The notes: generated from the letters alone by a model not told the origin. DNA of 64,000 bases from Candidatus Parcubacteria bacterium (GCA_018664825.1 JABJNO010000006.1:15157-79156), one strand, 5' to 3'; counted from the first letter of the stretch, positions 44,843 through 64,000 are shown. A program made the numbers and translations.

Positions 44843-44876
44843 AAACCCCCTATTTTCATAGGGGGTTATTTTTTTA
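44843..44876 (+). terminator. Bidirectional terminator (aaccccct-attttcat-agggggtt)
   Basis: 8-bp stem flanked by A and T runs. Marks the left edge of a GC-rich island. Confidence 0.65.
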
Positions 44877-45149
44877 TACTTTTTTCAAAGTTTCGAGAAT
44901 ACGCTGAGGGACAAAACAGATTTCGTCGGCTTGGCTACGCACCCAAAGCACGGGGTCGCTGTGATTTACACAATCACATCGCATACCTTCGGGTATAGGC
45001 GCTGCTCCCAGCACAGTAGCTGGCTTGTCCATGTGCTCCTCAGGAGCAATCTGATCGCCGGCTTCAAAGCCAAACTGACTACAAGCCTCAGTATCGACCT
45101 CGATTGTTCCCCCGCCATCTTGCAGGGTGATTGTTTGCATCTTCGGCAT
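44874..45149 (-). CDS. Hypothetical protein in GC-rich island
   Basis: 91-aa ORF, GC about 52%. Contains CDCVNH. Third gene of a three-gene minus-strand set. Confidence 0.4.
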   Translation of the reverse strand: MPKMQTITLQDGGGTIEVDTEACSQFGFEAGDQIAPEEHMDKPATVLGAAPIPEGMRCDCVNHSDPVLWVRSQADEICFVPQRILETLKKV

Positions 45150-45172
45150 TACAAAACCTCCGTTTGTTTTGG

Positions 45173-45361
45173 TTACTTCTTTTTGGGTGGATAAACCGCG
45201 TTGTAACTTTTACGACCATTCTCATAAAAAACACCACGCCTCGCAATCAACAAAGCACCTTGAGCCTCTGGATTGAGATGCTCAAAAGCCACTTGGCTAG
45301 TTGGAATGTCCTTGTGCTGAGGACGCAGATCTTCTCGGTCAAACTCTACCTTCATAATCAA
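45173..45361 (-). CDS. Hypothetical small protein in GC-rich island
   Basis: 62 aa. Overlaps the upstream gene by 4 nt. Confidence 0.35.
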   Translation of the reverse strand: MIMKVEFDREDLRPQHKDIPTSQVAFEHLNPEAQGALLIARRGVFYENGRKSYNAVYPPKKK

Positions 45362-45567
45362 GCCTCTTCCTTTGGGTAGCTCTCAAGAATCCTCGCCCAG
45401 CCCCAATGGCTAGGATTTTCTAAAACAATATCCTCAATAGTCTCTCTTAGGGTGGGTGGTTCCTCTTTGAGATCGATGGTAAATCCAAGGGCAAACAAGC
45501 AAAGCAAGGCAACCCAGGAAATGACGAATCTCTTTGAACTCATATTATTCTCCTTGTTAGGGTACAA
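45358..45567 (-). CDS. Hypothetical small secreted/membrane protein in GC-rich island
   Basis: N-terminal hydrophobic segment FVISWVALLCLFALGF. Confidence 0.35.
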   Translation of the reverse strand: MYPNKENNMSSKRFVISWVALLCLFALGFTIDLKEEPPTLRETIEDIVLENPSHWGWARILESYPKEEA

Positions 45568-45732
45568 AAAACTACATTAGACAATACAATATTTCATGTA
45601 TTTTGTCAATATATAGCCTAAAAAAGCCTTTCTTTTGTAAAAAACAAGAAAAAACTTGATAAAAGGTTAAATCTATTATAATCTACCCTTAGTCCTTTAA
45701 AACTCATAGGAAAATAAACAAAGGAGATAAAG

Positions 45733-45894
45733 ATGGGCAATAAAGGAGCCTCCCCCGAATTTGTAAGGCAAGCCCGCGAAATCTCTGACCGCGCCAACAT
45801 GCGTCAAGCTGGCTATGGCCCTGGCGGACCTTCTCCTAGGCCTCCAATCCAAAGATCGCTCTGGCGTAAATTTCTCGACAGACTCTTTTCCTAA
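45733..45894 (+). CDS. Small protein (53 aa) with strong SD, not in the ORF track
   Basis: aaaggagataaagATG. Sequence MGNKGASPEFVRQAREISDRANMRQAGYGPGGPSPRPPIQRSLWRKFLDRLFS, hand-translated. A TTGATA...TATAAT promoter lies about 55 nt upstream. Followed by the terminator aagagggaac-tacg-gttccctctt + T6. The track's antisense ORF 45697..45900 is probably spurious. Confidence 0.45.
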   Translation: MGNKGASPEFVRQAREISDRANMRQAGYGPGGPSPRPPIQRSLWRKFLDRLFS

Positions 45895-45984
45895 ACACAC
45901 CCAAAGAGGGAACTACGGTTCCCTCTTTTTTATTACCCTCAAAAATGCTAAAATAAGTACGTAAATAAAATAAAAACACTCAAA

Positions 45985-47643
45985 ATGCCAAAACAAAAAA
46001 TAAAATTCTTGTTTTTGATAATTACTGGGTATTTTTTTATTTTTGCCAAGCCAGCCAAGGCTGTCATACCGCCTGATTTTATATTTAGCATTACTGCCCA
46101 AATAGTCCAATTTTTTTCAATCATAATGATATTTTTGGCTACTATTTTAGGAACTTTGGTTCAATTTTTTAAAACGAAATACTACACTATCAGACACAAA
46201 AAAACTATCCTGACCTTGATAATAATCGGTATTGTCTTGGTCTCTTTTGTTTCTTCCTACTTTTATGCTACCCACAAACAAGAAGTCGAATATCAAAAAT
46301 GGCTAAACGAAAGTGAAAAATACAATATAGTAGAAATGGAGAACGAAGACATGGACTCTGATGGTGATGGACTGACAGATCTAGAAGAAGTCACCTACGG
46401 CACAAATCCTCACAACGCAGACACTGACGGAGACTCCTACTCAGACGGAGAAGAAGTCGCCAATGGCTATGATCCCCTGGGAAGTGGCAAGACCAAAGAA
46501 AATATAGAAAAAGGAGATGCAAACGATCAGCTAGCAATCGGTGCTCAAGCAAATGAAAATATCGATACTTCCGACAATACATTTGTATCCAATGTAGAGA
46601 TCACTGATGCTTCTACTAGTTTTATAAATGAGTATTATAGCAACATGGCCAACAGCAAACTAACCGAGGCCTATGAAATGTCAAAAAAATCTGTCAGCTA
46701 CTCAACATTTGAAAGCTGGTATCTAGAAACTACCAAAATTACTATTGATAAACTCATCAGAATAGACGAAACAAAATCATCCATAGAGCTCACTTTGTTT
46801 GAAGGAGAAAAATTTACTAGATATGGTGTCTTGATGGCTTTGGAGTTGAGAAATGAAATCCCACAAAGAGTAGCTAGCTCCAATGTAAAAATACTAGCCG
46901 AAGGAACTATCCAAAATCAAATTGTATCTATAGACGAACAAAAACTTTCTGATGAATATGCTTTTTTTGATGAACATAAAAACAAAAATCTCCTCTTCGG
47001 CAACCAAGAGCTACAAGACTTGATATCTAGTAGCGCCCAAGACTATATCATCTTGGATGCCAGAGAAGATATCGAATATGAAAATGGATATTTTCCTGCT
47101 AGTGAACATATACGCTTTGCAGATCTCAAGGCCGGACAATGGATAGAAATACCAGATGATAAATTTGTCTATGTCCTCTGCTGGTCAGGTATCCGTGGCA
47201 AAGAAGTAGCCGAATTTTTGAGAACCAAAAAAATAGTTGCCTCATACCTAGAAGAAGGAGCCAATGGCTGGGTAGAATTTGGTGGACACTGGATAGGTAG
47301 TATAAAATTTGGAGCACAATACAACGAATCAAGATATCAAATAGTATTTGATACTGATGATGTCAGACAAAAAGTACGAGATGGTGCCTTTTTGGTAGAT
47401 ACTAGAGAGCCCTACAAATTTAAACAAACCCACATAACAGGCAGTGTAAATATACCTATCATGTACACTCCTACTGTAAATATCGAAAATGTTTTTGCCC
47501 AAGTGCCAGCCAACAGCCAAATAATCACTGTCTGCGATGGTTATGTAAATTGTTTTGATGCAAAAATAACTGGCGTAGAACTAGAAAGACGTGGACATCA
47601 GTTTTTGGGAAGATACAATAAACCCTGGGAATATGAAAATTAA
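45985..47643 (+). CDS. Membrane-anchored protein with TSP3-like Ca-binding module and two C-terminal rhodanese domains
   Basis: Signal/TM N-terminus. DSDGDGLTDLEEVTYGTNPHNADTDGDSYSDGEEVANGYDPLGSG. Rhodanese 1 active-site loop LCWSGIRGKE. Rhodanese 2 ITVCDGYVNC. Confidence 0.55.
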   Translation: MPKQKIKFLFLIITGYFFIFAKPAKAVIPPDFIFSITAQIVQFFSIIMIFLATILGTLVQFFKTKYYTIRHKKTILTLIIIGIVLVSFVSSYFYATHKQEVEYQKWLNESEKYNIVEMENEDMDSDGDGLTDLEEVTYGTNPHNADTDGDSYSDGEEVANGYDPLGSGKTKENIEKGDANDQLAIGAQANENIDTSDNTFVSNVEITDASTSFINEYYSNMANSKLTEAYEMSKKSVSYSTFESWYLETTKITIDKLIRIDETKSSIELTLFEGEKFTRYGVLMALELRNEIPQRVASSNVKILAEGTIQNQIVSIDEQKLSDEYAFFDEHKNKNLLFGNQELQDLISSSAQDYIILDAREDIEYENGYFPASEHIRFADLKAGQWIEIPDDKFVYVLCWSGIRGKEVAEFLRTKKIVASYLEEGANGWVEFGGHWIGSIKFGAQYNESRYQIVFDTDDVRQKVRDGAFLVDTREPYKFKQTHITGSVNIPIMYTPTVNIENVFAQVPANSQIITVCDGYVNCFDAKITGVELERRGHQFLGRYNKPWEYEN

Positions 47644-48547
47644 AACTTCAAAAGTCATAATACTTTGGTTACTGGTCGTTATTTTGTCCATTGCTGTACC
47701 TCTTAGCTATTTGTTGTTCAACAAATCACTATACTTTTCTGATAGAATAATTGTATTGTTCAATGACGAAAACAATGCCAATCATGCCTTGATAGTTGAG
47801 CTAGTTAGTTATGAGATGGCGCCTTATTATTATCATCATACTTATTTTGCAATTTTGCTGGATGAGAAAAAAAATAGCCATACCAAGTCACACGAGTTCA
47901 ATTCTTTCAACGGTGATTTTCAAGCCAAAGATTTTATAAAAAATATCAAAAAAGAAAACAACGAAAATATCCTAGACGAAGACTATCTTATCAGCTTACA
48001 AATCAATAACAAAAATATCGAAATTGATTTGACTGACTTACGTGGAGATTTTTTGATAAACAACTCTTTGGACAGATTTACTTATATGAATCTAGGCAAT
48101 ACCGAGATAAAAATAAACGGACAAGGGCAACAAGCCGACTTTGCAATGAATAGGACATCATCCATAAACCACGGCAAGCTGATGTTGTCTCAAAATGTCA
48201 GAGCAAAAGGTCAGGCTGTATTTTTGGCAGACAAAGATGGCGCTTTGTACTACACCGACATAACCAATGTCCCCGAAAATAGCACAAACTATATGTCCCA
48301 TGCTTGGTCTATAAACAAACACGACAATGTATTGCGCAAAGATGTCAGCGAACGAATAAATATAACCGACATAGACCAAGAAAGTTATATTTTGGATTTG
48401 CCACACTTTGATAACGCTTATATAAAAATAAACAAGACATTTATCTATCCTGGTATAATAGACTACGCCCTACTCCGAGGCGAGCTGATAGATAATCATG
48501 GTGAAAAAATAATACGTGGTTTTAGTATGCAATATGACTACCGATAA
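47633..48547 (+). CDS. Membrane-anchored hypothetical protein
   Basis: Start chosen at the MKIKTSKVIILWLLVV Met, which overlaps the upstream stop (ATGAAAATTAA). The track start is 47591. Confidence 0.4.
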   Translation: MKIKTSKVIILWLLVVILSIAVPLSYLLFNKSLYFSDRIIVLFNDENNANHALIVELVSYEMAPYYYHHTYFAILLDEKKNSHTKSHEFNSFNGDFQAKDFIKNIKKENNENILDEDYLISLQINNKNIEIDLTDLRGDFLINNSLDRFTYMNLGNTEIKINGQGQQADFAMNRTSSINHGKLMLSQNVRAKGQAVFLADKDGALYYTDITNVPENSTNYMSHAWSINKHDNVLRKDVSERINITDIDQESYILDLPHFDNAYIKINKTFIYPGIIDYALLRGELIDNHGEKIIRGFSMQYDYR

Positions 48548-50576
48548 AAGTCTCATTTCTATACAAGAAATTGACTCTTACAAAAAATTTATTGGCAACA
48601 AAACTCTAAATTTAAAAAAGTGTTCTGATTTTGGATTCAATGTTCCAAAATTTTTGGCTATCCCCAGTACAGTTACTAGTATTTTGTTGACCAACCCCAG
48701 TGCACGCAAAGATATCGCCAAAAAAATTGTACACACACTTCCCAGTGAAAAATACGCTATCCGCTCTAGTGGACTTTTGGAAGATAGTCAGAGTCAGTCA
48801 TTTGCTGGCCAATTTTTGACCAAAACAAATGTCAGGCCAAGTGGCCTCGAAGACGCTATCCGCCAAGTCCTAGAACATGCTGACAAATACCTAAAAGGGC
48901 AGATAGATAAATTTTCTATAATAATACAAGAATACATAAACCCTCAGATGGCAGGCGTCACTTTTACTAGAAATCCAAACGGTAGTAGAGAGATGATAAT
49001 CGAATATGGATATTGTGAGGGCGAAAAGATAGTCAGTGGAGAAATAAAGCCAAAAAAAGTTTCTTTTTATTGGTCAGAGCAAACACCAAAAAAGCTCCCA
49101 GAATCATTTGTAGATCAAAAAGTTATTGAACAGTTCAAAGATATAGAGACAAAAAACAACTGGCCACAAGATATAGAGTGGTGCTTCAAAGACGAGACTT
49201 TTTATATATTACAAAATAGGCCGATCACTACCATCTCTCCAGAAAAATATCAGGAAAGTACTTTTTTGGACAACAATTTGGCAAAGCAAAAAAAATACTA
49301 CTTTGAAAAAACTGAAATATCCGAAATAGCACCAAAACCCAACACTATTACGCTAGATATACTCAAAAAAATATACAGCCCAAAAGGTCCTGTAACCAAT
49401 ATCTACAAAAAATATAATGTAGCTTACAAAGATACTGATTTTTTAAAAATTGTTGGCAATGATCTATATGTAGACAAAGAAAAAGAAATACAAAGTCTCT
49501 TACCTGCTTATAGCTATCTACAAAACAATACTTATTCTGCCAAATTCAGAAAATATTCCAAAACTTTGATAACTCTAAAAAATCTCCTCCACCTAAACAA
49601 AATCAAAACTGATGATTATGAGTACATTTTTGATAACCTAAAAAACAAAATCGAAGAGACAACACCTGAGCTAAATATAAAAGAAATTTTGGAGAAATTT
49701 TTGACAGACTATGAGATTATTTTCCAAGCAAATCTTTTGTCTGGTATGGCTATCAAAAAACTAGAGGCTATTTTGAAAAACGAAAAAATAAATCTACCCG
49801 AAATCATAGAGAGTTCCTCTACTTTTGTTGATCTTGATAAATACAAAATAAATCTACCCCAAAACCTACAGGGAAACTCTATTGATATAGCTGACAAATC
49901 AGAATTTGCTACTAGTGTAAAAAATAGCCAAGAAAATAAAGATACAAAAGAGTGGTGGCAAAAAATATCTAGCTACAAAAAGAAAGTTTTTGAAAAAAAG
50001 ATAGAAGAAGGTATTTTTTATAACTACTTACGAGAAGTAGGCCGCTACCTAACAGTAAAAAATATCAATCTACTACGACAATCTTTACTCAATATCGCCA
50101 AACAAAATAATTTTGCCAATCCAGAAGACATATACTTTACCAATCTTGAAAATGTCTTGGAAAACAAAATAAATGAAGAAAAATGCATTGCTAATAAAAA
50201 CAATTATCTAAAATACAAAGATTTTGAGTTTCCAAGCACCCTGACTTCATCTGTGCCCAATATAAAAAACAAAATAATGGGCGTATCAGCAGGCGTGGCT
50301 ACTGGTATTTTGCAAACCGCTGATATGATCAAAAATACAGGAGACAAAAATATTATATTGTATACCAAAATGTTATCTCCTGATCTGACTACCTATTTTG
50401 ATAAAATATCTGGCATAGTCTCAAACAACGGTGGCCTACTGTCCCATCTAGCCATAGTTGCCCGTGAAAGTAACATCCCTGTGATCGTAGGTGTATCACT
50501 AAACACCACCCAGATAAAAATCGGAGACAAAATACAAATAGACGGTAGCCAAGGTAAAATTTCTAAAATAAATTAA
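48534..50576 (+). CDS. PEP-utilising enzyme family protein (PPDK_N-like ATP-grasp plus mobile phospho-His domain; PEP synthase / rifampicin-phosphotransferase-like)
   Basis: C-terminal ILYTKMLSPDLTTYFDKISGIVSNNGGLLSHLAIVARESNIPVIVGV matches the mobile domain GG..SHaAIvARE..iP.VvG. N-terminal half is an ATP-grasp-like nucleotide-binding domain. Confidence 0.55.
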   Translation: MTTDKSLISIQEIDSYKKFIGNKTLNLKKCSDFGFNVPKFLAIPSTVTSILLTNPSARKDIAKKIVHTLPSEKYAIRSSGLLEDSQSQSFAGQFLTKTNVRPSGLEDAIRQVLEHADKYLKGQIDKFSIIIQEYINPQMAGVTFTRNPNGSREMIIEYGYCEGEKIVSGEIKPKKVSFYWSEQTPKKLPESFVDQKVIEQFKDIETKNNWPQDIEWCFKDETFYILQNRPITTISPEKYQESTFLDNNLAKQKKYYFEKTEISEIAPKPNTITLDILKKIYSPKGPVTNIYKKYNVAYKDTDFLKIVGNDLYVDKEKEIQSLLPAYSYLQNNTYSAKFRKYSKTLITLKNLLHLNKIKTDDYEYIFDNLKNKIEETTPELNIKEILEKFLTDYEIIFQANLLSGMAIKKLEAILKNEKINLPEIIESSSTFVDLDKYKINLPQNLQGNSIDIADKSEFATSVKNSQENKDTKEWWQKISSYKKKVFEKKIEEGIFYNYLREVGRYLTVKNINLLRQSLLNIAKQNNFANPEDIYFTNLENVLENKINEEKCIANKNNYLKYKDFEFPSTLTSSVPNIKNKIMGVSAGVATGILQTADMIKNTGDKNIILYTKMLSPDLTTYFDKISGIVSNNGGLLSHLAIVARESNIPVIVGVSLNTTQIKIGDKIQIDGSQGKISKIN

Positions 50577-50592
50577 ATTTAAACCCAAAAAT

Positions 50593-51174
50593 ATGAATTC
50601 AAGACAAATCATCCTAGCATCTACCTCCCCTCGTCGCAAAGAAATACTATCTTTGACTGGTTTAAAGTTTGAAACAGTTGCCAGTGACTACGAAGAGGAT
50701 ATGACTCTAGACCTCGAACCACTAGAGCTAGCCAAACTCCTTTCTAGAGGAAAGGCCGAGGCCGTGGCAAAAGACTATAAAGATAGTATAGTTATCGGTG
50801 CTGATACTTTTGTTGTGCTAAACAACGAACTCCTAGGCAAACCACATGATGCAGATACTGCTACCAAAATGCTAGAAAAAATAAGCAATCAAGCAGTTTC
50901 ATTGATAACTGGCTATACTATCATCGATACAGCCAATAATAAAAATATATCCGAAACAGTAGAAACCAAAATATACATAAAAGAGCTTTCAGACCAAGAG
51001 ATCAAGGGCTACGTCGCAACAAAAGAGCCTCTCGATAAAGCAGGGGCATTTGCTATACAGGGTATAGGTGCAATATTTATCAAAAAAATTGAAGGTGACT
51101 TCTTTGGGGCTATGGGTTTACCACTTTTTGACCTATCAAAAGCTCTAAAAAAATTTGGAATCTCTATTTTATAA
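50593..51174 (+). CDS. maf: Maf-like nucleoside triphosphate pyrophosphatase
   Basis: IILASTSPRRKEILSLTGLKF ... VIGADTFVVLNNELLGKP ... AFAIQGIGAIFIKKIEGDFFGAMGLP. Confidence 0.85.
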   Translation: MNSRQIILASTSPRRKEILSLTGLKFETVASDYEEDMTLDLEPLELAKLLSRGKAEAVAKDYKDSIVIGADTFVVLNNELLGKPHDADTATKMLEKISNQAVSLITGYTIIDTANNKNISETVETKIYIKELSDQEIKGYVATKEPLDKAGAFAIQGIGAIFIKKIEGDFFGAMGLPLFDLSKALKKFGISIL

Positions 51175-51177
51175 AAC

Positions 51178-51987: not shown

Positions 51988-52213
51988 AAATAAACACATG
52001 AAAAAATATACACTTCCTATTATTATTTTTATTCTTGGCATCATCTCTTTTATTACCTTTGGCCTTATTGGTTCCGAAGTTTCAGAAGATGGGATGCTTA
52101 TAGAACAATTCGGACTTATACCTATTGGTTATTTATTGATAACTATCAGTATAATATGGAGCATAATTATTTTAATTATCCCCATGTTTCAAAAGACAAA
52201 TAAAAAACCCTAG
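51974..52213 (+). CDS. Small two-TM membrane protein
   Basis: 79 aa with two hydrophobic helices. Overlaps the upstream stop. Confidence 0.35.
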   Translation: MLTDKNKHMKKYTLPIIIFILGIISFITFGLIGSEVSEDGMLIEQFGLIPIGYLLITISIIWSIIILIIPMFQKTNKKP

Positions 52214-52229
52214 ATTAAAATCTAGGGTT
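52206..52229 (+). terminator. Bidirectional terminator (aaccctagatt-aa-aatctagggtt)
   Basis: Perfect 11-bp palindromic stem between convergent genes. Confidence 0.65.
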
Positions 52230-52236
52230 TTGTTTA

Positions 52237-52578
52237 TTAACAGGCTTTTTCCCTCTGCCACATGATAAAAAAATATGTGAGCATAAACAAAAAGAAACAG
52301 GGAAAAATAAAGCCAACTGCTGTGATTTTGGCAATGGCAAAATGAATCACCAGGTACAAGGCCGCTAATAAAATAGCCGCTCCCGACCAATTGATACGCT
52401 TGCCTATAATACCTCCAGCCACAATGCCAGCAATCAGCCCAAAGGCAAACCCTATCAAACAGCCCAAATAAGCTCTCTGCTGATCTTGCTCTCCTAGGGC
52501 TTCAACCCAAGAAAAAAAGAATCTTTGCACAATCAGACTAGCTGATGAGACCAAGATGATAGGAATCAGGTTACGCAT
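52237..52578 (-). CDS. Integral membrane protein (3-4 TM), hypothetical; strong SD
   Basis: aaaagggagataatcATG. A TTGACA -35 lies upstream. Confidence 0.45.
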   Translation of the reverse strand: MRNLIPIILVSSASLIVQRFFFSWVEALGEQDQQRAYLGCLIGFAFGLIAGIVAGGIIGKRINWSGAAILLAALYLVIHFAIAKITAVGFIFPCFFLFMLTYFFIMWQREKAC

Positions 52579-52695
52579 GATTATCTCCCTTTTTTAAAAG
52601 ATCAAAGTTTGAATTTAACGATTGATATTATTATATATAATCATCTTTGTCAATAAATAAACCCCCTAGATAAAAATATAGGGGGTTTTATAATA

Positions 52696-52775
52696 AGGGA
52701 GCAGGAACTCACCGGAAGAGCTAGGCTCCTCACGAACTCCGTAGAGCCCGCTGGGCGAGAGAGCCCCTACTCCAC
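52696..52775 (+). ncRNA. GC-rich highly structured element of about 80 nt (candidate small RNA or repeat); strand uncertain
   Basis: GGGAGCAGGAACUCACCGGAAGAGCUAGGCUCC forms nested helices (GGAGC/GCUCC and CUC/GAG around ACCGGAA). Then CUCCGUAGAG and GGGCGAGAGAGCCC hairpins. A long-range GGAGCAGG/CCUACUCC pairing is possible. About 65% GC in AT-rich surroundings. No family recognised. Confidence 0.25.
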
Positions 52776-52780
52776 ACTGA

Positions 52781-53149
52781 TTATTCTTTACTATCAGCCA
52801 AATTGACCTCAGGCCAACTCAAGACTTCTTCGGGAATTGGACTCCCCCCTTCTCTTGCTTGCCTAGCCAAAATCCGACGTAGATGAAAATTTTGGCAAGC
52901 TATCATATTGTGCATATGGCAAATATTGCTACTGCGAAAAACTCCCAAGATGCCAGGACAATCAGAATAATGTATCCGACCACTATTTTCACCTATGCGA
53001 AAAGGTGGAAAACTACCCAATGTCCACGTACCTCTTTCTTCATTTACTTTTACATTGCGCGGACACTTGCCAGTGACTTTGATTTCATTACCTTCTCTAA
53101 TTAGAAAAAGTAATCCTGACCATTTTTTTCTGGTTTTTTTCATAGTCAT
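52781..53149 (-). CDS. Cys/His-rich small protein, possible zinc-dependent nuclease-like (HNH/Vsr-like motif uncertain)
   Basis: SDCPGILGVFRSSNICHMHNMIACQNFHLRR. GC-richer. N-terminal basic segment. Confidence 0.3.
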   Translation of the reverse strand: MTMKKTRKKWSGLLFLIREGNEIKVTGKCPRNVKVNEERGTWTLGSFPPFRIGENSGRIHYSDCPGILGVFRSSNICHMHNMIACQNFHLRRILARQAREGGSPIPEEVLSWPEVNLADSKE

Positions 53150-53322
53150 CTTATACTCCTTATTTTGGGTTTAAAAGTACTATCTCAATAATCAAAAATT
53201 ACTACTTAACATAACAATTGTCAAATATCATTGACAAAATACCTTCAAAATACTAATATTTAGTGTAATTCACCTAGGTAAAAATCCTATAAAATGTACC
53301 CTAAAACAAAAGAGGTTTCCAA

Positions 53323-53703
53323 ATGAACAACAAAGTGCGCCGTTTTCTTTTGATCTTGTTATTGATCCTCATCTACATCCCTGTCCGTGGTATCGACAAC
53401 ATCAACGGTGATCTCCGATTTATAGGCTTCTGCCCCAACTGTACGGATTCCTATTATTGGAAAGAATCCAGCTCTCTGACTTATTGGAAAGCCGAAGATC
53501 AAACTTCGTTTGGCCACACATCCTCAGCAGTGATGATCTGTAAAAAATGTATGGATGACCCCGAGGGGCTGAGTCCCAACCGAATCGGCTTTATGCTCTG
53601 GTGGCCACTTGGAATAGGTGGCTGGGACAAAGAAGGCACAGACATGGTCAAGGATGCTGTACGTCAGTACAAACAAGGTGACGCAAGTCTTCGGTCAATC
53701 TAA
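53323..53703 (+). CDS. Secreted/membrane-anchored zinc-ribbon protein (CxxC...CxxC), hypothetical
   Basis: SD caaaagaggtttccaaATG. Motifs FCPNCTD and ICKKCMDDPEG. N-terminal hydrophobic helix. Confidence 0.4.
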   Translation: MNNKVRRFLLILLLILIYIPVRGIDNINGDLRFIGFCPNCTDSYYWKESSSLTYWKAEDQTSFGHTSSAVMICKKCMDDPEGLSPNRIGFMLWWPLGIGGWDKEGTDMVKDAVRQYKQGDASLRSI

Positions 53704-53750
53704 AGCCCAAAACAAACACACCGATTTCTCCCCAACCGAAAGGAAAGACT

Positions 53751-53993
53751 ATGTGGTTGATACGATTCAATCAATGGTACGACCAACTATCCCCCGATCC
53801 TCGTTTCATTTTATTCCTGCTCTTCATCGCCATAATCGGCATTGGGTCGATTAGCTTTGGTCTGAATCTCAATCAGCCCAAGCTAGCTCTATTTGGCACT
53901 GTCTGGATTGCCATCTTTGGTGGCCAAAGAGCGATTTACTTCCTTCTCAATCGAAGAGTTGTTCGTTCCAGAGTCCAAAAACCTAGAGGTTAA
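53751..53993 (+). CDS. Small two-TM membrane protein
   Basis: 80 aa. Followed by a terminator (ccctcg...cggggg + T-run). Confidence 0.35.
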   Translation: MWLIRFNQWYDQLSPDPRFILFLLFIAIIGIGSISFGLNLNQPKLALFGTVWIAIFGGQRAIYFLLNRRVVRSRVQKPRG

Positions 53994-54066
53994 ACCTCAC
54001 TCACCCTCGTTTTTTTAAACGGGGGTTTTATTTTACAAAAATATCTAAAAGGATTAAGATTATCTT

Positions 54067-54741: not shown

Positions 54742-54742
54742 T

Positions 54743-56397: not shown

Positions 56398-56401
56398 ACA
56401 T

Positions 56402-56791: not shown

Positions 56792-56795
56792 TTTT

Positions 56796-57197: not shown

Positions 57198-57340
57198 TTA
57201 GAAAAATATACATTCAAAAAACCCACTAGCTCATTTAGTGGGTTTTGTTATTATGATTGACAAAAGTCTTCAAATACACTTAAATACAAGCAGAATGATC
57301 TTTTTAATGAGTAAAAACCATAAACCAAGGAGAGTTTATA

Positions 57341-57637
57341 GTGAAAAGCAATGGAGAAACCGTCCAAATGACAAGGTCTGATGGAAAGCTAGGAGTTGAG
57401 TTTAACCCCCCTGAAGAATTGCAAAGATTTCTAGATTTTGTCATAAAATCCGAAGACCCCTACATGGAGCACTACCCTCAAATCCTCCGAAATGGAGGCA
57501 TCATTCCTTTGGACGATCCTGAATTTATGAAAATGTTGGATAGAAAAGGAATTACTCCTTATACTATCCCCAACACAATGCGAGCTGACTATTTGGTAGC
57601 CTTTCAAAAAAATAAGGCCTCCCAGTCAACTACATAA
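57341..57637 (+). CDS. Hypothetical protein, GTG start with SD
   Basis: ccaaggagagtttataGTG. 98 aa. Followed by the terminator aaaagtctaatcttttaagattagacttttt. Confidence 0.4.
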   Translation: MKSNGETVQMTRSDGKLGVEFNPPEELQRFLDFVIKSEDPYMEHYPQILRNGGIIPLDDPEFMKMLDRKGITPYTIPNTMRADYLVAFQKNKASQSTT

Positions 57638-57706
57638 AAGTCTAATCTTTTAAGATTAGACTTTTTTATTTAAAATAAAAAAAGCGGAGTTGTCTCCGCT
57701 CTTGTC

Positions 57707-58018
57707 TCACGAAAAAAAAGTAGGGAATTGACCTTTGATTAGATTGGCCAAAGCTATTGAAACCACAAACATCGGTAAAAAAAATACTGTGAACCGCCTG
57801 GGATATTCAACTCTTCTTTTTAGAAAACCCCAAAATATACTCAGGCCAAAAAACATAATAACATTATTCCAAAATCCAGTATGATCATAATGATTTGCCC
57901 AGAGCATATGAGTAATAAACACCAATGTAAATAAGATCGTCACCAGGGTGACATAAACCGTATTGTTTGGTTTGATTTTCACGTCTACCTCCTTGTTCCC
58001 TAAGTTTGTAACGTACAA
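57707..58018 (-). CDS. Small integral membrane protein (3 TM)
   Basis: Followed on the minus strand by the terminator agcggagacaactccgct + T7. The overlapping track ORF 57885..58124 is rejected. Confidence 0.45.
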   Translation of the reverse strand: MYVTNLGNKEVDVKIKPNNTVYVTLVTILFTLVFITHMLWANHYDHTGFWNNVIMFFGLSIFWGFLKRRVEYPRRFTVFFLPMFVVSIALANLIKGQFPTFFS

Positions 58019-58124
58019 AAGAACGCTTATTTTTACTATATATTTGAATATTTGTCAATAATAGGGTAAAATACAAGCTAAAGAGGGCCCCCTGGGCCAA
58101 CAATGATATTATTAAAAAAATCAT

Positions 58125-58397
58125 ATGGATGCTGATGACAAAAAGAAAATAAAAGATTATTTAAACAGTCCTGATACTGAACTTTTAAATATTATCCGTA
58201 GCCAATATGACACTCCCAATGCAGACCTCGCCAAATGGACTCTCAATTATAGGCTCTACGATACTATGGTGAGCCTCAACCATAGTATAAAAGCAAACAG
58301 TAAAAATGCTGCTCGTTATAATAGATATATGTTTTGGATTGCCATCTTCATGGCCACAATGACTGCTCTTAATATGATATTTATTATTTCTCTATAA
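58125..58397 (+). CDS. Hypothetical protein with C-terminal TM helix
   Basis: 90 aa. Followed by the terminator aaacccccgttgttttaacgggggttttttg. Confidence 0.4.
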   Translation: MDADDKKKIKDYLNSPDTELLNIIRSQYDTPNADLAKWTLNYRLYDTMVSLNHSIKANSKNAARYNRYMFWIAIFMATMTALNMIFIISL

Positions 58398-58428
58398 AAT
58401 AAATTACAAAAAATAAACCCCCGTTGTT

Positions 58429-58608
58429 TTAACGGGGGTTTTTTGAATACCTCTTCAGAGATTGCATAAACTTTTTCCGCTTCTGCGGACAAATTTCAGT
58501 ATCTCCGATTTCACGAATATGATTTCTGATCCCTATGATCATAAAGGTAAAAATACCTACAAAAATCAAACCAGCGACTACAGCCACGATGATTTCTTTG
58601 ATTTCCAT
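58429..58608 (-). CDS. Small membrane protein (59 aa) with textbook sigma70 promoter and SD; not in track
   Basis: TTGACA-17-TATAGT upstream, then aaaaaggagaccaagATG. Protein MEIKEIIVAVVAGLIFVGIFTFMIIGIRNHIREIGDTEICPQKRKKFMQSLKRYSKNPR, hand-translated. Its stop lies within the downstream terminator hairpin. Confidence 0.4.
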   Translation of the reverse strand: MEIKEIIVAVVAGLIFVGIFTFMIIGIRNHIREIGDTEICPQKRKKFMQSLKRYSKNPR

Positions 58609-58769
58609 CTTGGTCTCCTTTTTCCAGAGTTTTAAGGTTCAAAAATATTCTAAATACTATATCATAAAAATCTGTTTTTGTCAACAGATTCGACAAGCTC
58701 ACTACAAGTAAATAAAAACCCACCTCAATCTTTTGAAGATATATTGGTGGGTTATAGTCGGGGGTACAT

Positions 58770-59060
58770 CTACAGTTGACCTCCTGTGTAGAGCCTGGTA
58801 CTAATCCAGACATAAAAGACAACCGAGCCTATGATAAGTAAGCACGTAACCACCGCTACCGGAAAACTCAATCGACTAAGATTGGGATAATCTTTACGAT
58901 TATAGACTTCCAGTCTACTAATAAACAGGGAAAGTACTCCCACAGCAGTACCAGCGATTAGCTTGGACTTTACACCAGGCATAACGGCCACCAACAGCAC
59001 CATCAGGACAAGGGCCACAACGGCCCAGACAAAGGGGTTATACAACAGCTTTTTCATCAC
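58770..59060 (-). CDS. Integral membrane protein (3 TM) with SD
   Basis: gggaaggaagaggtgATG. GC about 50%. Followed on the minus strand by the terminator cccacc...ggtggg + T5. Confidence 0.45.
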   Translation of the reverse strand: MMKKLLYNPFVWAVVALVLMVLLVAVMPGVKSKLIAGTAVGVLSLFISRLEVYNRKDYPNLSRLSFPVAVVTCLLIIGSVVFYVWISTRLYTGGQL

Positions 59061-59087
59061 CTCTTCCTTCCCGGGGGATACGGGATT

Positions 59088-59222
59088 TTAAGCTACCTTG
59101 ACTATGGACATTAGTAGAAGAGCCAAAATGCAAAACAATAAACCCAGATCAAGCCAGTAGGCCTTGTTTGTTTCTAATGGCTCTTCTTCTCGACGATCAC
59201 GTCCTCTTTTTCCACTCATTGC
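59088..59222 (-). CDS. Small membrane protein (about 44 aa) with SD and TTGACA-17-TATATT promoter
   Basis: gggaggaatggcaATG. Protein MSGKRGRDRREEEPLETNKAYWLDLGLLFCILALLLMSIVKVA. The track's longer version (to 59333) includes the promoter region and is unlikely. Confidence 0.4.
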   Translation of the reverse strand, partial: AMSGKRGRDRREEEPLETNKAYWLDLGLLFCILALLLMSIVKVA

Positions 59223-59289
59223 CATTCCTCCCTGTTCAATGTAAAATAAAGGGTACAAAAACATCTTAATATAATTTATTATATCAGTT

Positions 59290-59847
59290 ATGTCAAATAT
59301 AGAAAATAGGCACAAATTAGGTAAAATACACATCTATACTGGAGATGGTAAAGGCAAGACTACTGCAGCCCTAGGATTGGCCGTCCGAGCTCTAGGCAAT
59401 GGCCTCCGAGTTGGTATTATTTATTTTGACAAAGGTGGAGATTATTACAATGAAAGAAAAATCCTAGACAAGCTAAAGCCAGATGGTCTAGAATACAAGG
59501 CTTTTGGCCAAACAAGAATGGTAGAAAAAAAAGGTTTTCGTTTTGAAAATGTACCAGCTGACTTTGCTGATGCCGAAGATGCTATCCTAACTGCTGAAAA
59601 ATGGATGAAAAAAAGGCTTGATTTGATGATTTTGGATGAGATCAATACTACCGTCAAAACGGGCTTGCTAAAAGTTGAAAAAATTGTTAATTTACTAGGG
59701 CAGAAACCAGCTCATTTAGAACTGATTTTGACTGGCCGTTATGCTCCAGATGAAGTTTTAAAATTCGGTGACTTGATTACCGAAATGACTATGGTCAAAC
59801 ATTATATGAGTGAGGGTATTCCTGCTAGAAAAGGGATTGAATTCTAA
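59290..59847 (+). CDS. cobO: Cob(I)alamin adenosyltransferase (CobO/BtuR/CobA type)
   Basis: P-loop-like HIYTGDGKGKTTAALGLAVRALGNGLRVGIIYFDKGG, then LDE. Confidence 0.8.
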   Translation: MSNIENRHKLGKIHIYTGDGKGKTTAALGLAVRALGNGLRVGIIYFDKGGDYYNERKILDKLKPDGLEYKAFGQTRMVEKKGFRFENVPADFADAEDAILTAEKWMKKRLDLMILDEINTTVKTGLLKVEKIVNLLGQKPAHLELILTGRYAPDEVLKFGDLITEMTMVKHYMSEGIPARKGIEF

Positions 59848-59872
59848 TAATTATACTGAGCTTTATTAAAAT

Positions 59873-60304
59873 ATGAAAAAAATTATATCTTTTATCTTCT
59901 TTATTGTAGCCATTGCTATTATTGTGCTAATATTAAGAAACAATGGTCTCCCAAATATTGGTAACAACACAATCGACGAAGGACCTATAAAAAAATATAT
60001 CGGCATAGAGTTCCTATTTACTGAAGACGACAAAATTTTTGTCCAATATGAACACATTGATCCCCCTCAAGATCTATTTACTATCACTCAGGATATAGCC
60101 CTACAACAAAACTGGGAATTTGCTTCTGAGGACTATGGAGAGATGGGCATCTTGGTTGAAAAAATAAAAGACAAAGAAAACGGAGAGAGCAAAAAATACT
60201 GGCAATACTTTATGGACCTACAACAACCCCAAGTATCTGCTGAAAAGTTTTATCCTACACCAGGACAATACATACAATGGAAATTTCAAGCGTCTGAATT
60301 TTAA
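59873..60304 (+). CDS. Membrane-anchored/secreted small protein, hypothetical
   Basis: N-terminal TM/signal. 143 aa. No motif recognised. Confidence 0.4.
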   Translation: MKKIISFIFFIVAIAIIVLILRNNGLPNIGNNTIDEGPIKKYIGIEFLFTEDDKIFVQYEHIDPPQDLFTITQDIALQQNWEFASEDYGEMGILVEKIKDKENGESKKYWQYFMDLQQPQVSAEKFYPTPGQYIQWKFQASEF

Positions 60305-60328
60305 AAAATATATTTAGTTTATCAAAAT

Positions 60329-60853
60329 ATGAAAAAAACAAACCTATTACTTATAGTAGCAATTAGTCTAATACTCTTACTTGCTAGATTGATTCCACAT
60401 GTACCAAATTTTTCTCCTTTGGCTAGTGTACTACTTTTTGCTGGAGTATACGCCAAAGACAAAAGATATCTTTTGATTCCTCTAGTTGCCTTATTTGTCT
60501 CTGACTTGTTTCTTGGTTTTTATAAACTAGAAATCATGCTATCTGTTTATATCTCCTTGGCATTGATAGGATTGGTTGGCGTCATAGTCAAAAAAAACAA
60601 AAATATTTTGAACATTATTACCGGCTCTATGGGAGCAGCTATATTATTTTTCCTAGTCACTAACTTTGCTGTTTGGTATTTTGGCGCCTGGTATCCAAAT
60701 ACTCTTTCCGGATTAGCTCTGTGCTATAGTCTGGCAATTCCTTTTTTCAAAAGTACTTTAATCAGCAATTTATTTTATACAAGTGTACTGTTTGGCACTT
60801 ATGAAATGGCCTTATATTTTTACCAACAAAGAATTCTAGCCAAATCCCGTTAA
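60329..60853 (+). CDS. Small polytopic membrane protein (5-6 TM), possible transporter substrate-capture-like component
   Basis: 174 aa with six hydrophobic segments. No ATPase nearby. Function not determinable. Confidence 0.35.
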   Translation: MKKTNLLLIVAISLILLLARLIPHVPNFSPLASVLLFAGVYAKDKRYLLIPLVALFVSDLFLGFYKLEIMLSVYISLALIGLVGVIVKKNKNILNIITGSMGAAILFFLVTNFAVWYFGAWYPNTLSGLALCYSLAIPFFKSTLISNLFYTSVLFGTYEMALYFYQQRILAKSR

Positions 60854-60896
60854 AAAATTTCTAGCCAAAATAAACAATAATTTTTTTTAAAACAAA

Positions 60897-60929
60897 TTGT
60901 CTTGAGCGTAGTCGAAAGGCGATTTTTTT
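60897..60929 (+). repeat. Hairpin repeat copy B (ttgtct-TGAGCGTAGTCGAA-aggcga + T7), acting as terminator of the upstream gene
   Basis: Same loop as copy A. The stem forms with two G-U wobbles, which works only in RNA and in this orientation. Followed by ttttttt. Confidence 0.5.
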
Positions 60930-60981
60930 AATTGTCAAAAAAATGGTATAATAATAATAGTAAAAATTATTACACACAAAA

Positions 60982-62025
60982 ATGGACAAAAAAATAAACA
61001 TCAACGATTTATTTAAAAAAGCAACCGAAAAAAAAGCCTCTGACTTACACATCATTGCTGGTAAACCACCTATCTTGAGAATTGACGGAGAACTAAAGGT
61101 AATTGCGGATTATCCTATTATTACTAGAACATCTGGAAAAGAAATGGTTTTTAGTATTCTTACTGAAAGACAAAGAATAAAGTTCGAAGAAGAAAGAGAA
61201 CTAGATATTTCTTATGAAATTCCCAAATTTTCTCGTTATCGTGTCAATCTACATTGGGAGAAAGACAATGTTGGTCTAGTAGCTAGGGTCATTTCAAATG
61301 AGGTCCCTTCTATAGACACACTTGGCCTACCTCCAATAGCCCTAGAGCTGATCTCCAAAACTAGTGGGCTACTCCTAGTGACCGGTCCTACTGGCTGTGG
61401 TAAATCCACCACTCTAGCCGCTATGGTAGAAAAAATAAACCAAATGCGCTTTGCTAATATTATTACCCTTGAGGATCCTATTGAGTTTATCCATAAACCA
61501 GTCAAAAGTATTATCAAGCAAAGACAACTAGGCAATGACATGCTGACTTTTGAAGGAGCCTTGCGACATGTCTTGAGACAAGATCCAAATGTAATCATGG
61601 TCGGTGAGGTCAGAGATCTAGAAACAATGGCAGCGACTATTACCCTAGCTGAAACCGGTCACCTAGTACTAGCCACTCTACATACTCACAATGCCGCCCA
61701 AACAATTGATCGTATTATCGACGTCTTCCCCCCTCATCAACAGGCCCAAGTCAGACTTCAGTTGTCTATTTCTTTGAGCGGTATCATCTCCCAACAATTA
61801 TTACCTAGAGTTGGTGGAGGTCGTATTGCAGCCAGAGAGATACTACTAAACACTCCAGCAGTAGCAAATATTATTCGCGAGAACAAAGTACCTCAAATCA
61901 AAAGCGTCATTCAAACTAGCGCTGAAGAAGGTATGTTTACAATGGAACAAAATATCAAGGAGTTATTAAGTCAAAACTTGATTGAAGAAACTACTGCTAT
62001 GGCTTATTTGAGTAACTTTCAATAA
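60982..62025 (+). CDS. pilT: Type IV pilus retraction ATPase PilT
   Basis: Walker A GPTGCGKSTT. Asp box, Walker B and His box VIMVGEVRDLET ... HLVLATLHT. 347 aa. Confidence 0.85.
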   Translation: MDKKININDLFKKATEKKASDLHIIAGKPPILRIDGELKVIADYPIITRTSGKEMVFSILTERQRIKFEEERELDISYEIPKFSRYRVNLHWEKDNVGLVARVISNEVPSIDTLGLPPIALELISKTSGLLLVTGPTGCGKSTTLAAMVEKINQMRFANIITLEDPIEFIHKPVKSIIKQRQLGNDMLTFEGALRHVLRQDPNVIMVGEVRDLETMAATITLAETGHLVLATLHTHNAAQTIDRIIDVFPPHQQAQVRLQLSISLSGIISQQLLPRVGGGRIAAREILLNTPAVANIIRENKVPQIKSVIQTSAEEGMFTMEQNIKELLSQNLIEETTAMAYLSNFQ

Positions 62026-62969
62026 TGAACAAAGCTATTCTCTCACAAATAAGTTTATTTAAAAATCTAAGCCCCAAAGAAATTTCAATAGTGGCTGATT
62101 TTTTGATAGACAAACAATACAACCAGGGTGACAAAATATTTAAAGTGGGAACTGTTCGAGATAAAATAATAATAATCACCGATGGTATGGCCGCCCTAAA
62201 GACAGGTCTTGATAGCGAACAAACCATTGCTCTTTTCAAAAAATATGACTCTCTAGGAGAAATGGCCTTGGTGTCAAAAGCCAGCACTCATCAATATGGA
62301 CTAGAAGTAGATACTCCAAAACTAAAAACCCTTGAACTATCTGTCTACAATTGGGCTACCATCTTAAAAAATCATCCCAAAATTGCCAACAAAATATACC
62401 AAAATATTTCCATCACAATCAAAGATCGCCTCAATCATGCCAACAATAAATTAGTGGCTCTGTTTGCTGCCGGTCAAATAATCAGTGGCCTGGATGATCT
62501 AAAAACTACCCTATCCTCTATCCTAAATATCATCCTCAAAATTATTCCTTCCGAAAAAGCTGCCTTTGCCACTTATTCAAAAGATATCCAAAAGGTTCAT
62601 ATCTATGAAAGCGTTGGTTTTAAAAATATAATAGATAACAAAAGTTATGATATAAACAAAGATCCCTTATTGACTTTTGTAGCATCTGAAGCAAAGACTA
62701 CTATCTTGGAAAAAAACAATTGGCCCAAAGAATATCAAACACTGCCCTACAAATGTGACACCCTGATTGTCTGCCCAATCAAAATACAAAAAAATGTAAT
62801 TGGTTTTATAATTTTGGGAGACAAGAGTAATGGCAGGGACTTTAGTACCAACAATAAAATACTATTAGAGTCACTTTCTAGCCAAGCTGCTCCGGCCATT
62901 TATTATATATCTTCCCAAAAAATAAAAAAAGCAGCCCAAGATATAAAAAGAGAATATATTGATCTCTAG
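62025..62969 (+). CDS. Cyclic-nucleotide-binding-domain plus GAF-like domain regulatory protein
   Basis: N-terminal cNMP-binding-like segment LFKNLSPKEISIVADFL...GDKIFKVGTV...GEMAL. C-terminal GAF-like region. Start overlaps the pilT stop (TAATG). Confidence 0.5.
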   Translation: MNKAILSQISLFKNLSPKEISIVADFLIDKQYNQGDKIFKVGTVRDKIIIITDGMAALKTGLDSEQTIALFKKYDSLGEMALVSKASTHQYGLEVDTPKLKTLELSVYNWATILKNHPKIANKIYQNISITIKDRLNHANNKLVALFAAGQIISGLDDLKTTLSSILNIILKIIPSEKAAFATYSKDIQKVHIYESVGFKNIIDNKSYDINKDPLLTFVASEAKTTILEKNNWPKEYQTLPYKCDTLIVCPIKIQKNVIGFIILGDKSNGRDFSTNNKILLESLSSQAAPAIYYISSQKIKKAAQDIKREYIDL

Positions 62970-63050
62970 TCACTACTATTGAAATATCTTTTATTCTGTG
63001 TTATATTGTTTTGGCTTATAGCTTATCAGGCTATTTTTTAATATAAATCT

Positions 63051-63126
63051 GCGGTCGTAGCTCAATGGATAGAGCACTTGGCTTCGGACCAAGGGGTTGT
63101 AGGTTCGACTCCTACCGGCCGCACCA
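63051..63126 (+). tRNA. tRNA-Arg (anticodon TCG), CCA encoded
   Basis: GCGGTCGTAGCTCAATGGATAGAGCACTTGGCTTCGGACCAAGGGGTTGTAGGTTCGACTCCTACCGGCCGCACCA. Anticodon loop CTTCGGA. Confidence 0.85.
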
Positions 63127-63202
63127 TTCGACTCGCTTCGCTCGCTCATGGCCTACGGCCAGAATATGCGAGGCGAATGTCCTGAGCCTAGTCGAAGGAC
63201 AT
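63124..63202 (+). repeat. Inter-tRNA copy of the hairpin repeat: one inverted half (63124-63152) and one direct hairpin C (63177-63202: atgtcc-TGAGCCTAGTCGAA-ggacat)
   Basis: The stem atgtcc/ggacat covaries with ccgtcc/ggacgg of copy A while the loop is conserved. The inverted half begins at the tRNA CCA end. Confidence 0.55.
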
Positions 63203-63219
63203 CAATCATTATCAAGTCC

Positions 63220-63295
63220 GCCCTTATAGCTCAGTCGGTAGAGCAGTTGCCTCTTAAGCAAACGGTCGGGGGTTCAAGTCCCTCTGAGGGCACCA
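63220..63295 (+). tRNA. tRNA-Lys (anticodon CTT), CCA encoded
   Basis: GCCCTTATAGCTCAGTCGGTAGAGCAGTTGCCTCTTAAGCAAACGGTCGGGGGTTCAAGTCCCTCTGAGGGCACCA. Anticodon loop CTCTTAA. Confidence 0.85.
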
Positions 63296-63402
63296 CTAAA
63301 ATAACCTTTTCTACAGGGTTGTTTTTAATTTGACAGCTTTGGAGATTAGCCCTAAGATAAATACGATTTGTTGTACCCTACGACTCAAAAAGGAGAGAGG
63401 AA

Positions 63403-63633
63403 GTGAAAAACACTCGTGTCATAATCGTCACCAATGGTGAACCACTACCCACAGAAATCACTCAACAACTAGAAGCTGGCTACCAGGAGGTAATTGTTAC
63501 TGAAGACATGGATATTGGAGATGTTCTCCGAGATTGCTTTTTTACTAGGATTGGCTATTATAGCCCTCTACACCGACAGTTTGTTGGTGAGCTACTCAGC
63601 CACCTAAAAAGACACAATACAAGGCCTTCCTAA
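63403..63633 (+). CDS. Hypothetical small protein, GTG start with SD
   Basis: aaaggagagaggaaGTG. 76 aa. GC about 48%. Confidence 0.35.
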   Translation: MKNTRVIIVTNGEPLPTEITQQLEAGYQEVIVTEDMDIGDVLRDCFFTRIGYYSPLHRQFVGELLSHLKRHNTRPS

Positions 63634-63767
63634 AGCCCCAATCTATCAAGATTGGGGCTTTTATTGTATAATATTGACATACTATCCCAATATTGGTAGT
63701 ATAAACAATCGTTTCGTTTCGTACTTTTCATTCACATCTCAAAAGGAGGTGAAATAATGAGTTCCTA

Positions 63768-64000
63768 CTCACACGGACAGATGATCTGTCACATTAAAGA
63801 CAAAGAACCTACTCTTCTCACTACTCTACAAGGAGCCTTCAACCAAGACGTTACGTCTTTTATAAGACATATTATTGAAGTTGATCAAAATATCTCTCTG
63901 GGTATCCCCCAAAGAAAATTCAAAGGCTTTGTTTTTGACCTCTCTGAGGTCACTGCCGTAGGTAGAGAGCTAGAAGTTTTTTTGGCAACCTTATCTCAAC
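63768..64000 (+). CDS. Hypothetical protein, 3'-partial (runs off window end), strong SD
   Basis: aaaggaggtgaaataATG. The ORF MSSYSHGQMICHIKDKEPTLL... stays open to the window end. Not in the track. Confidence 0.4.

Follow-up and report, generated by a model that had tools for sequence, protein, structure and literature searches.

Small Shine-Dalgarno-led cassettes among Shine-Dalgarno-less backbone genes in a Candidatus Parcubacteria genome: long resident and possibly of horizontal origin

A 64,000 nt stretch of a Candidatus Parcubacteria genome (GCA_018664825.1, JABJNO010000006.1:15157-79156; the whole stretch is called the window, and positions are counted from its first letter) raises the question whether genes that start in two different ways on one chromosome have two different origins. 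A sequence-only reading had noticed that the backbone genes carry no Shine-Dalgarno sequence (SD), whereas five small islands at 44866-45940, 52230-54035, 57341-57637, 58400-59290 and 63400-64000 (islands 1 to 5) carry AGGAG-type SDs, and it had taken the islands for foreign DNA brought by a mobile element, a phage or other horizontal transfer. We found two separable classes of genes in the window. The SD class is arranged in small cassettes that, by comparison with sister species, appear to be long resident in this lineage.

The GC content (GC), the GC of third codon positions (GC3), the upstream sequence and the SD pairing energy were tabulated for each gene, using the public gene coordinates with a few of them corrected. 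Among 79 genes in the window, 63 had no SD and 16 had a strong SD centred at -9. In the SD class, GGAG or GAGG was located 5-10 nt 5' of the start and G reached 94% at -9, whereas in the 63 backbone genes G was at most 17% at every position from -15 to -1; the first observation of the sequence-only reading was thereby confirmed. The backbone leaders were characterized by A (60-73% at -11, -10 and -6 to -3) and by U at -1 (68%), and A+U over -20..-1 was 84% for backbone genes versus 59% for island genes. The predicted folding of the start region (-30..+30) also differed, with a mean minimum free energy (MFE) of -7.9 kcal/mol for cassette genes and -3.25 kcal/mol for backbone genes (p=1e-7). SD-led genes were absent among the 45 genes at 1.5-44.8 kb and made up 15 of the 33 genes at 44.8-64 kb; they were clustered into 11 runs against 26.5 expected (P<5e-5). 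Measuring SD and GC gene by gene had been proposed as a check on the islands, and over the 79 genes SD use was indeed linked to location and to gene-level GC.

The two classes were also divided by promoter, as the sequence-only reading had held. TTGACA-N17-TAnnnT was found in nine copies versus 1.3 expected, eight of them placed 66-92 nt upstream of SD genes. TGnTATAAT was found in 18 copies versus 5.8 expected, mainly in backbone intergenic DNA and often right after the T-run of a terminator. The -35 box was of the TTGAYA type in all eleven SD transcription units (TU) of 44866-64000 (TTGACA in ten, TTGATA in the other); each unit also had a -10 box, a leader of 40-55 nt and a terminator at the end, these promoters and terminators being predicted only as matches to sequence consensus. 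Terminator-like hairpins numbered 35 versus 14 expected and were located at nearly all island borders. A leader motif, TGTACCCT, occurred five times in the window versus 1.3 expected, and none of 100 shuffles reached five. Four of the five copies lay at an equivalent site of cassette leaders, about 11-14 nt past the -10 box (35 nt in TU5) and 20-35 nt before the start, and the variants GTACGTT, GTACTTT or GAACCTT were present in three or four more leaders; it should be considered that this motif evidence comes from few copies. Complementarity between TGTACCCT and the SD that would sequester the latter was inspected by eye only, and nothing convincing was seen. The shared cassette style points to a common source or a common regulation. 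The units, together with the backbone stretch and an SD island at the left edge of the window, are given below.

1..1473, + strand: GC-rich SD island with the 3' part of a flotillin/Band_7 gene (to 597) and a 265-aa (amino acid) gene at 676-1473.
1581..44824: backbone stretch of 45 genes with no SD (kor, iscS/nifU, RNase J, RNR, CorA, ZIP, ABC transporter and others).
44844..45609, - strand: TU1, promoter TTGACA-N17-TATTGT at 45581-45609 and leader TGTACCCT at 45559-45566; genes at 45358-45543 (61 aa, signal/transmembrane), 45173-45355 (60 aa) and 44874-45149 (91 aa), with SDs AGGAG, GGAAGAGG and GGAGG and GC 0.45-0.51; bidirectional terminator 44844-44867.
45656..45928, + strand: TU2, TTGATA / TATAAT promoter and leader CTACCCTTAG; gene at 45733-45894 (53 aa, GC 0.54), SD AAGGAG at -11..-6; terminator 45903-45928.
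52204..52653, - strand: TU3, promoter 52625-52653; gene at 52237-52578 (113 aa, multiple transmembrane segments), SD GGGAG; bidirectional terminator 52204-52231.
52660..53224, - strand: TU4, promoter 53196-53224; gene at 52781-53149 (122 aa, Cys/His-rich), SD AAGGAG; predicted structured RNA element 52696-52778; terminator about 52660-52690.
53231..54026, + strand: TU5, promoter 53231-53259 and leader TGTACCCT at 53295-53302; gene at 53323-53703 (126 aa, secreted, Cys-rich) and open reading frame (ORF) at 53751-53993 (80 aa, two transmembrane segments); terminator 54003-54026.
57257..57665, + strand: TU6, TTGACA-N17-TTAAAT promoter; gene at 57341-57637 (98 aa, GTG start), SD AAGGAG; terminator 57636-57665.
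57680..58058, - strand: TU7, TTGACA promoter 58029-58058 and leader TTTTGTACGTT; gene at 57707-57982 (91 aa, three transmembrane segments, GTG start), SD AGGAGG 5 nt before the GTG; terminator 57680-57703.
58415..58684, - strand: TU8, promoter TTGACA-N17-TATAGT at 58656-58684; gene at 58429-58608 (59 aa, single transmembrane segment), SD AAGGAG; terminator 58415-58441.
58722..59296, - strand: TU9, promoter TTGACA-N17-TATATT at 59268-59296 and leader TGTACCCT at 59250-59257; ORFs at 59088-59219 (43 aa, tail-anchored) and 58770-59057 (95 aa, three transmembrane segments), SDs GGGAGG and GAAGAGGTG; hairpin terminator about 58722-58752.
63330..63661, + strand: TU10, promoter TTGACA-N17-TAAGAT and leader TGTACCCT at 63372-63379; gene at 63403-63633 (76 aa, GTG start), SD AAGGAGAGAGG; terminator 63632-63661.
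63674..64000, + strand: TU11, promoter TTGACA-N17-TAGTAT and leader CGTACTTTT; gene from 63757 to about 64341, past the window end (194 aa, N-terminal STAS-like predicted fold), SD AAGGAGGTGA at -13.1 kcal/mol.

About half of the cassette products are membrane or secreted proteins. The five islands stand where they had been placed, with two changes of extent: island 3 was drawn too short and covers about 57241-58062, including the convergent SD gene at 57707-57982 (-), and island 5 runs past the window end to about 64341. The stronger island at 1-1500 had not been listed.

Several genes of the two styles are treated differently in different gene calls. The TU7 gene was overlooked in the sequence-only reading and miscalled in the Joint Genome Institute (JGI) annotation, and the public call at 57885-58124 (-), which overlaps this better-supported gene, is probably spurious. 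The 80-aa ORF of TU5 has a weak SD and is absent from the JGI calls, and for the short ORF 5' of the TU9 95-aa gene the most likely start is 59219, with GGGAGG ahead of it. Public calls misled by the mixed signals were seen at 9738-10172 (-) and 11873-12079 (-) as well as at 57885-58124 (-). Two public starts take an ATG within the TGGTATAATG promoter box, where the sister contigs start about 30 nt further downstream.

At the gene level, GC was 0.44 for SD genes versus 0.36 for backbone genes (p=3e-6). First, second and third codon positions all showed the increase (GC1 0.52 vs 0.46, GC2 0.40 vs 0.32, GC3 0.41 vs 0.31), as a different mutational history would lead one to expect. The islands had been described as GC-richer throughout, and as regions this was true only in part. 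The GC of 44866-45940 (0.439) was above every backbone window of equal size and that of 52230-54035 (0.409) was marginal, 3.8% of backbone windows being equally GC-rich, while 57241-58062 (0.348), 58400-59290 (0.393) and 63300-64000 (0.391) could not be distinguished from the backbone. GC alone was rejected as an island marker, since three of the five listed islands are compositionally ordinary. The link between SD and GC has a further exception in a gene for a lysine-rich small protein just beyond the window (contig L010 7555-7788 (+), contig L030 14143-14502 (+)), whose GC is 0.24-0.29 and which in both contigs is preceded by one and the same perfect SD, GAAAGGAGGTGAAAA. GC-rich genes are therefore not the only ones to use an SD.

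How old the islands are could be judged from related genomes. The sister species L030 (GCA_018669975.1) has all backbone genes in common with the window at 52-83% amino acid identity, and shows the same mosaic: backbone genes including rplS have no SD and a GC of 0.31-0.38, and SD-led genes with a GC of 0.42-0.50 occupy equivalent intergenic positions. Among the island genes of the window, one is 76% identical to its L030 counterpart and two are 29-35% identical, the remainder being replaced by other SD-led genes. The two are the TU9 95-aa gene, with a syntenic homologue of 29% identity in L030, and the TU10 76-aa gene, with syntenic homologues of 35% identity in L030, L031 and L032. Islands 2, 4 and 5 have counterparts at the corresponding position in sister species. 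The same sites thus hold different genes in different species, that is, the positions are stable and the content turns over.

The 194-aa gene of TU11 was the best conserved case. It is syntenic in four species, between a gene for a cyclic nucleotide (cNMP)-binding protein plus tRNAs and rluA, with 73-76% identity. Its nonsynonymous divergence (dN) was 0.15-0.20 and dN/dS 0.04-0.12 with synonymous divergence (dS) saturated, so it is conserved like the backbone genes. Its GC3 was 0.32-0.42 across the four species, and 0.32, the backbone level, in the species of the window. The SD of this gene, AGGAGGTGA, is invariant in the four species, within a leader that has otherwise diverged. In island 2, the 126-aa gene and its orthologue in the metagenome-assembled genome (MAG) L044 are 72% identical, with the promoter largely conserved. 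Considering these comparisons, the islands are most probably long resident rather than recent insertions, contrary to the picture of insertion first drawn from the sequence. Among more distant relatives, contigs L040 and L041 (one labelled Magasanikbacteria; rhodanese protein 67% identical) contained no SD-led gene among 43 genes in about 40 kb. The absence of the SD class there is compatible with acquisition in an ancestor of this sub-lineage. The A-rich, unstructured, SD-less start regions of the window backbone were also found in L030, L040 and L041. A PPDK-like protein of the window, compared with the GTDB genomes, had relatives of only 27-32% identity, mainly archaeal, and no close genome was found.

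The invariance of AGGAGGTGA in four species despite saturated dS indicates that the SD is used by the organism and is not a donor leftover, and it opposes the implication of a foreign, non-functional SD. The SDs of the cassettes extend into GGAGGTGA, a match to the canonical 16S tail. The SD very probably works in this organism, and from the full-length SDs conserved across species and the GAAAGGAGGTGAAAA shared by two species we infer a functional, canonical anti-SD in its 16S rRNA. The conserved AGGAGGTGA also speaks, indirectly, against membership in the anti-SD-less Parcubacteria, whose 16S 3' end would be without CCUCCU. The backbone style fits the anti-SD loss or disuse reported in Parcubacteria (PMC9297842).

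The left edge of the window holds what is, by its relatives, the clearest case of horizontal transfer. The stretch 1..1473 is the end of an operon of NfeD-like, flotillin and 265-aa genes, with an SD of AAGGAG or AGGAG ahead of both genes that reach into the window, and its GC of 0.545 is above every backbone window. In contig L022 the operon is located at 14109-17299; it has 54-59% GC and SDs. A syntenic three-gene operon was found in L043 (1680-4588), a 6.78-Mb SD-using genome of 62% GC, with 38, 54 and 48% amino acid identity, and homologues of the 265-aa protein were found on several contigs of 2-7 Mb. This operon is very probably foreign. The proposed foreign origin is thus upheld by the synteny with L043 outside the range for which it had been claimed, and no donor was found for the small islands within it.

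Our best reading, to which we give about an even chance, is that the small cassettes are old, moron-like accessory units, acquired horizontally and long inherited vertically. Core genes would be transcribed from extended -10 promoters (TGnTATAAT), and their translation would begin without SD, behind short leaders that are rich in A/U and free of structure. Between these genes, with a concentration in the 20 kb ahead of the rRNA operon, would lie the cassettes; each would comprise a consensus sigma-70 -35/-10 promoter, a leader with a strong SD, up to three small ORFs and an intrinsic terminator. Most likely their acquisition was horizontal, at different times and from sources that use SD and are richer in GC; they would have been inherited vertically since before the split of the sister species, the older ones drifting toward the genome GC. 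The SD would be kept since the ribosome can use it and the structured, less A/U-rich cassette starts need it. In line with this scheme, the core genes presumably initiate without SD, and the cassette genes may depend on SD pairing that compensates for the structure of their start regions. A foreign origin of the small cassettes is plausible, and the GC gradient, from the flotillin operon (0.54-0.59) through island 1 (0.44) to the 194-aa gene (GC3 0.32-0.42), fits amelioration.

Several results weigh against this reading. The 194-aa and 126-aa proteins, the only two searched for homologues, had relatives only in sister Parcubacteria, and none of the small-island proteins tested gave a donor or homologue outside this group. 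By regional GC, three of the five islands first listed cannot be told from the backbone. The cassette promoters are alike beyond their hexamers, in an extended ATTGACAAA form, and a common promoter with a common leader motif is not what acquisition from many different donors predicts. The last 36 nt of the 126-aa leader, including TGTACCCT and the SD, differ from L044 by one base. As to the use of the SD, an anti-SD motif has been reported for just 48% of Parcubacteria 16S genes (PMC9297842). The rRNA operon lies about 5 kb past the window end, with 5S and 23S genes on the minus strand (L010 9243-9852 (-), L030 15959-16618 (-)), and the contigs with available DNA all end inside the 23S gene, short of the 16S 3' end, which would be on the minus strand some 8-9 kb past the window. 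A metagenome scan for a 23S pattern specific to the lineage gave two contigs, both extending in the wrong direction.

A serious rival, although on balance a doubtful one, is that the cassettes are not foreign and form a native regulon of lineage-specific, co-regulated small-protein genes whose composition is held by selection. Possibly they would be surface or host-interaction factors, the selection could act for example through mRNA stability or structure, and they could be governed by a class-wide switch of SD initiation comparable with the bS21-controlled anti-SD occlusion of Bacteroidia. The promoter and leader architecture common to the eleven units speaks for such a regulon, as does the 126-aa gene, whose promoter and leader have changed less between species than the coding sequence; neither a regulator nor a binding site was identified, however, and the motif copies are few. 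The SD conserved across four species, the SD of the AT-rich native gene and the restriction of both searched island proteins to this lineage would also be explained, but the island content is replaced between sister species, and relatives of the largest SD island, at 1-1500, clearly occur in a large genome of high GC. The membrane or secreted proteins that make up about half of the products, and the predicted STAS (partner-switching) fold of one product, agree with regulated genes, whereas the rise of GC at all codon positions is unlike selection on proteins alone.

An extension of the same idea, which we hold unlikely, is that the cassettes are a separately controlled class of both transcription and translation. 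Their small membrane or secreted proteins, specific to this lineage, would make up a regulon with the common promoter, the TGTACCCT-type leader element and the strong SD as its marks, and this regulon could be switched as a block. The switch might be an anti-SD made available or a leader-binding factor, perhaps acting on contact with a host cell. Nothing supports a radical variant, in which the signals are 'host-style' for expression in a host cell.

A recent insertion of mobile DNA from an SD-using donor, such as a prophage remnant, an integrative element or transposon cargo, is still less probable. The GC and the SDs unlike the flanks, the moron-like build with its own promoter, small ORF and terminator, and two tRNA genes (tRNA-Arg and tRNA-Lys) adjoining island 5, which do so at the orthologous L030 locus likewise, would suit such an event. 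No integrase or transposase was found among the called genes, however, and no flanking direct repeats or att sites were found, the only repeats being promoter-to-promoter similarities. Island proteins had no significant match in PHROGs (best E=0.028, others at least 0.07), Pfam, PADLOC or NCBIfam, and no relatives were found in IMG/VR or in phage and plasmid records, a weak negative as these searches reach close relatives only. The mobile element or phage proposed at first is thus disfavoured. Among about 30 population contigs no empty site was found at the islands, those covering islands 1, 3, 4 and 5 being all identical, and sister species with saturated dS carry islands at corresponding positions. 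One observation on the side of recent insertion comes from L022, a contig of a closely related strain that matches the window at 99.99% identity as far as the 3' end of tRNA-His (13869) and diverges completely from there on (L022 1-1712); past the tRNA-His, an SD-led 367-aa gene (GC 0.44) stands where the window has tRNAs and the ABC transporter. Such a break could reflect a difference between strains, whether a rearrangement or a tRNA-linked island, or else a join made in assembly.

The gene order of the window is also found on a 254-kb JGI contig (sample 3300072015) and many short contigs, with matching NCBI MAG proteins under the locus tags HON36_ and HN859_. The borders of islands 1, 3, 4 and 5 are spanned, at 99-100% identity, by about 20 contigs from more than 10 samples (SPAdes, MEGAHIT, JGI, NCBI MAG and Logan assemblies); island 2, within 48.3-56.8 kb and outside the retrieved DNA, is supported by the gene order of the 254-kb contig only. 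An assembly chimera or contamination, in which pieces of another organism were joined into the contig, has the compositional contrast and nothing else in its favour and can be dismissed for practical purposes, as had been argued from the small size of the islands, since independent assemblies exclude it for four of the five islands, island and backbone genes use common terminators and the sister species has an equivalent mosaic.

Three known systems may be compared. The 'morons' of lambdoid phages are autonomous promoter-gene-terminator cassettes with a GC unlike their flanks. Like them, the cassettes have their own promoter, one to few small ORFs and an intrinsic terminator and are sited between the genes of another unit; some are GC-atypical, and the content at one position varies between relatives. 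Unlike them, they are chromosomal without prophage context, have no PHROG or viral relatives, and at least some have been inherited vertically over saturating divergence. In the model of Lawrence and Ochman, horizontally acquired islets undergo compositional amelioration. The GC and GC3 above the genome, the enrichment of orphan genes, the apparent age-related GC gradient and the syntenic relative of the 1-1500 operon in a high-GC large genome agree with this model; the lack of mobility genes and repeats, the lack of a donor for the small islets, the shared promoter and leader style and the three of five listed islets that are no longer GC-atypical do not. Bacteroidia have A-rich 'Kozak-like' leaders and an anti-SD occluded by bS21, bS18 and bS6, with the SD retained on rpsU. 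The A-rich, G-poor backbone leaders and the strong SD on a small minority of genes resemble this arrangement, but the SD minority here consists of clustered orphan cassettes with another promoter type and not of ribosomal genes.

The 194-aa protein (P0026) of TU11 has no Pfam match. Its predicted model had a predicted local distance difference test (pLDDT) score of 57 over the whole chain, with about 70 for the N-terminal half, and in Foldseek against PDB nearly all of the top 36 matches were STAS-domain proteins or the STAS domains of SLC26/SulP transporters. The best E was 3e-4, with a target TM-score of 0.55-0.76 for stand-alone STAS proteins, for what is a low-confidence model. VGRE stands in place of the phosphorylatable DSSG motif, and the C-terminal half is a Cys-containing beta-rich domain in the predicted model. 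The N-terminal half may, with low confidence, adopt a STAS or anti-sigma-antagonist fold.

The RNA element at 52696-52778 (-) in TU4 is an 83 nt, GC-rich, non-coding sequence that directly follows the 122-aa gene. In the sister species L044 it is conserved at about 93% identity although the neighbouring gene differs there, with one compensatory change of a G-C to an A-U pair. A three-way fold was predicted with an MFE of -42.5 kcal/mol (z -3.6), and none of 200 shuffles was as stable. No family matched in Rfam, and the element is a candidate for a small RNA or a 3'-UTR (untranslated region) element. Downstream of the sole consensus TTGACA-N17-TAnnnT outside the islands, at 26740-26838 (-), about 60 nt containing hairpins and a T-run precede the first ORF, and this may be a small RNA gene.

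The window as a whole has 36.7% GC and contains four tRNA genes and no other Rfam family. Five tandem paralogues of 191-197 aa are located head to tail at 31351-34319 (-); they are of backbone style with no SD. A 317-bp duplication of about 92% identity (5133-5449 and 9244-9559) spans two 83-aa paralogues (MNIFKSLFKSD... and MNFFKSLFKSD...).

Candidate phyla radiation (CPR) bacteria are uncultured, and to our knowledge almost nothing is known of the control of their gene expression. Published work has only noted the absence of the anti-SD motif in many Parcubacteria, and in the literature on Shine-Dalgarno sequences in Parcubacteria, Patescibacteria and the CPR we found no description of such an SD-led class. 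At this locus SD-independent initiation is the rule, and a conserved, clustered minority of orphan small-protein genes keeps a full-length SD together with another promoter type. SD and slightly higher GC should accordingly not be taken as proof of recent foreign DNA, and the mixed styles lead gene callers to mis-start or miscall genes here. It is predicted that the lineage retains a functional anti-SD. Promoter type and SD together would be a simple mark by which accessory genes, or possibly genes for host interaction, could be recognised in such genomes from the sequence.

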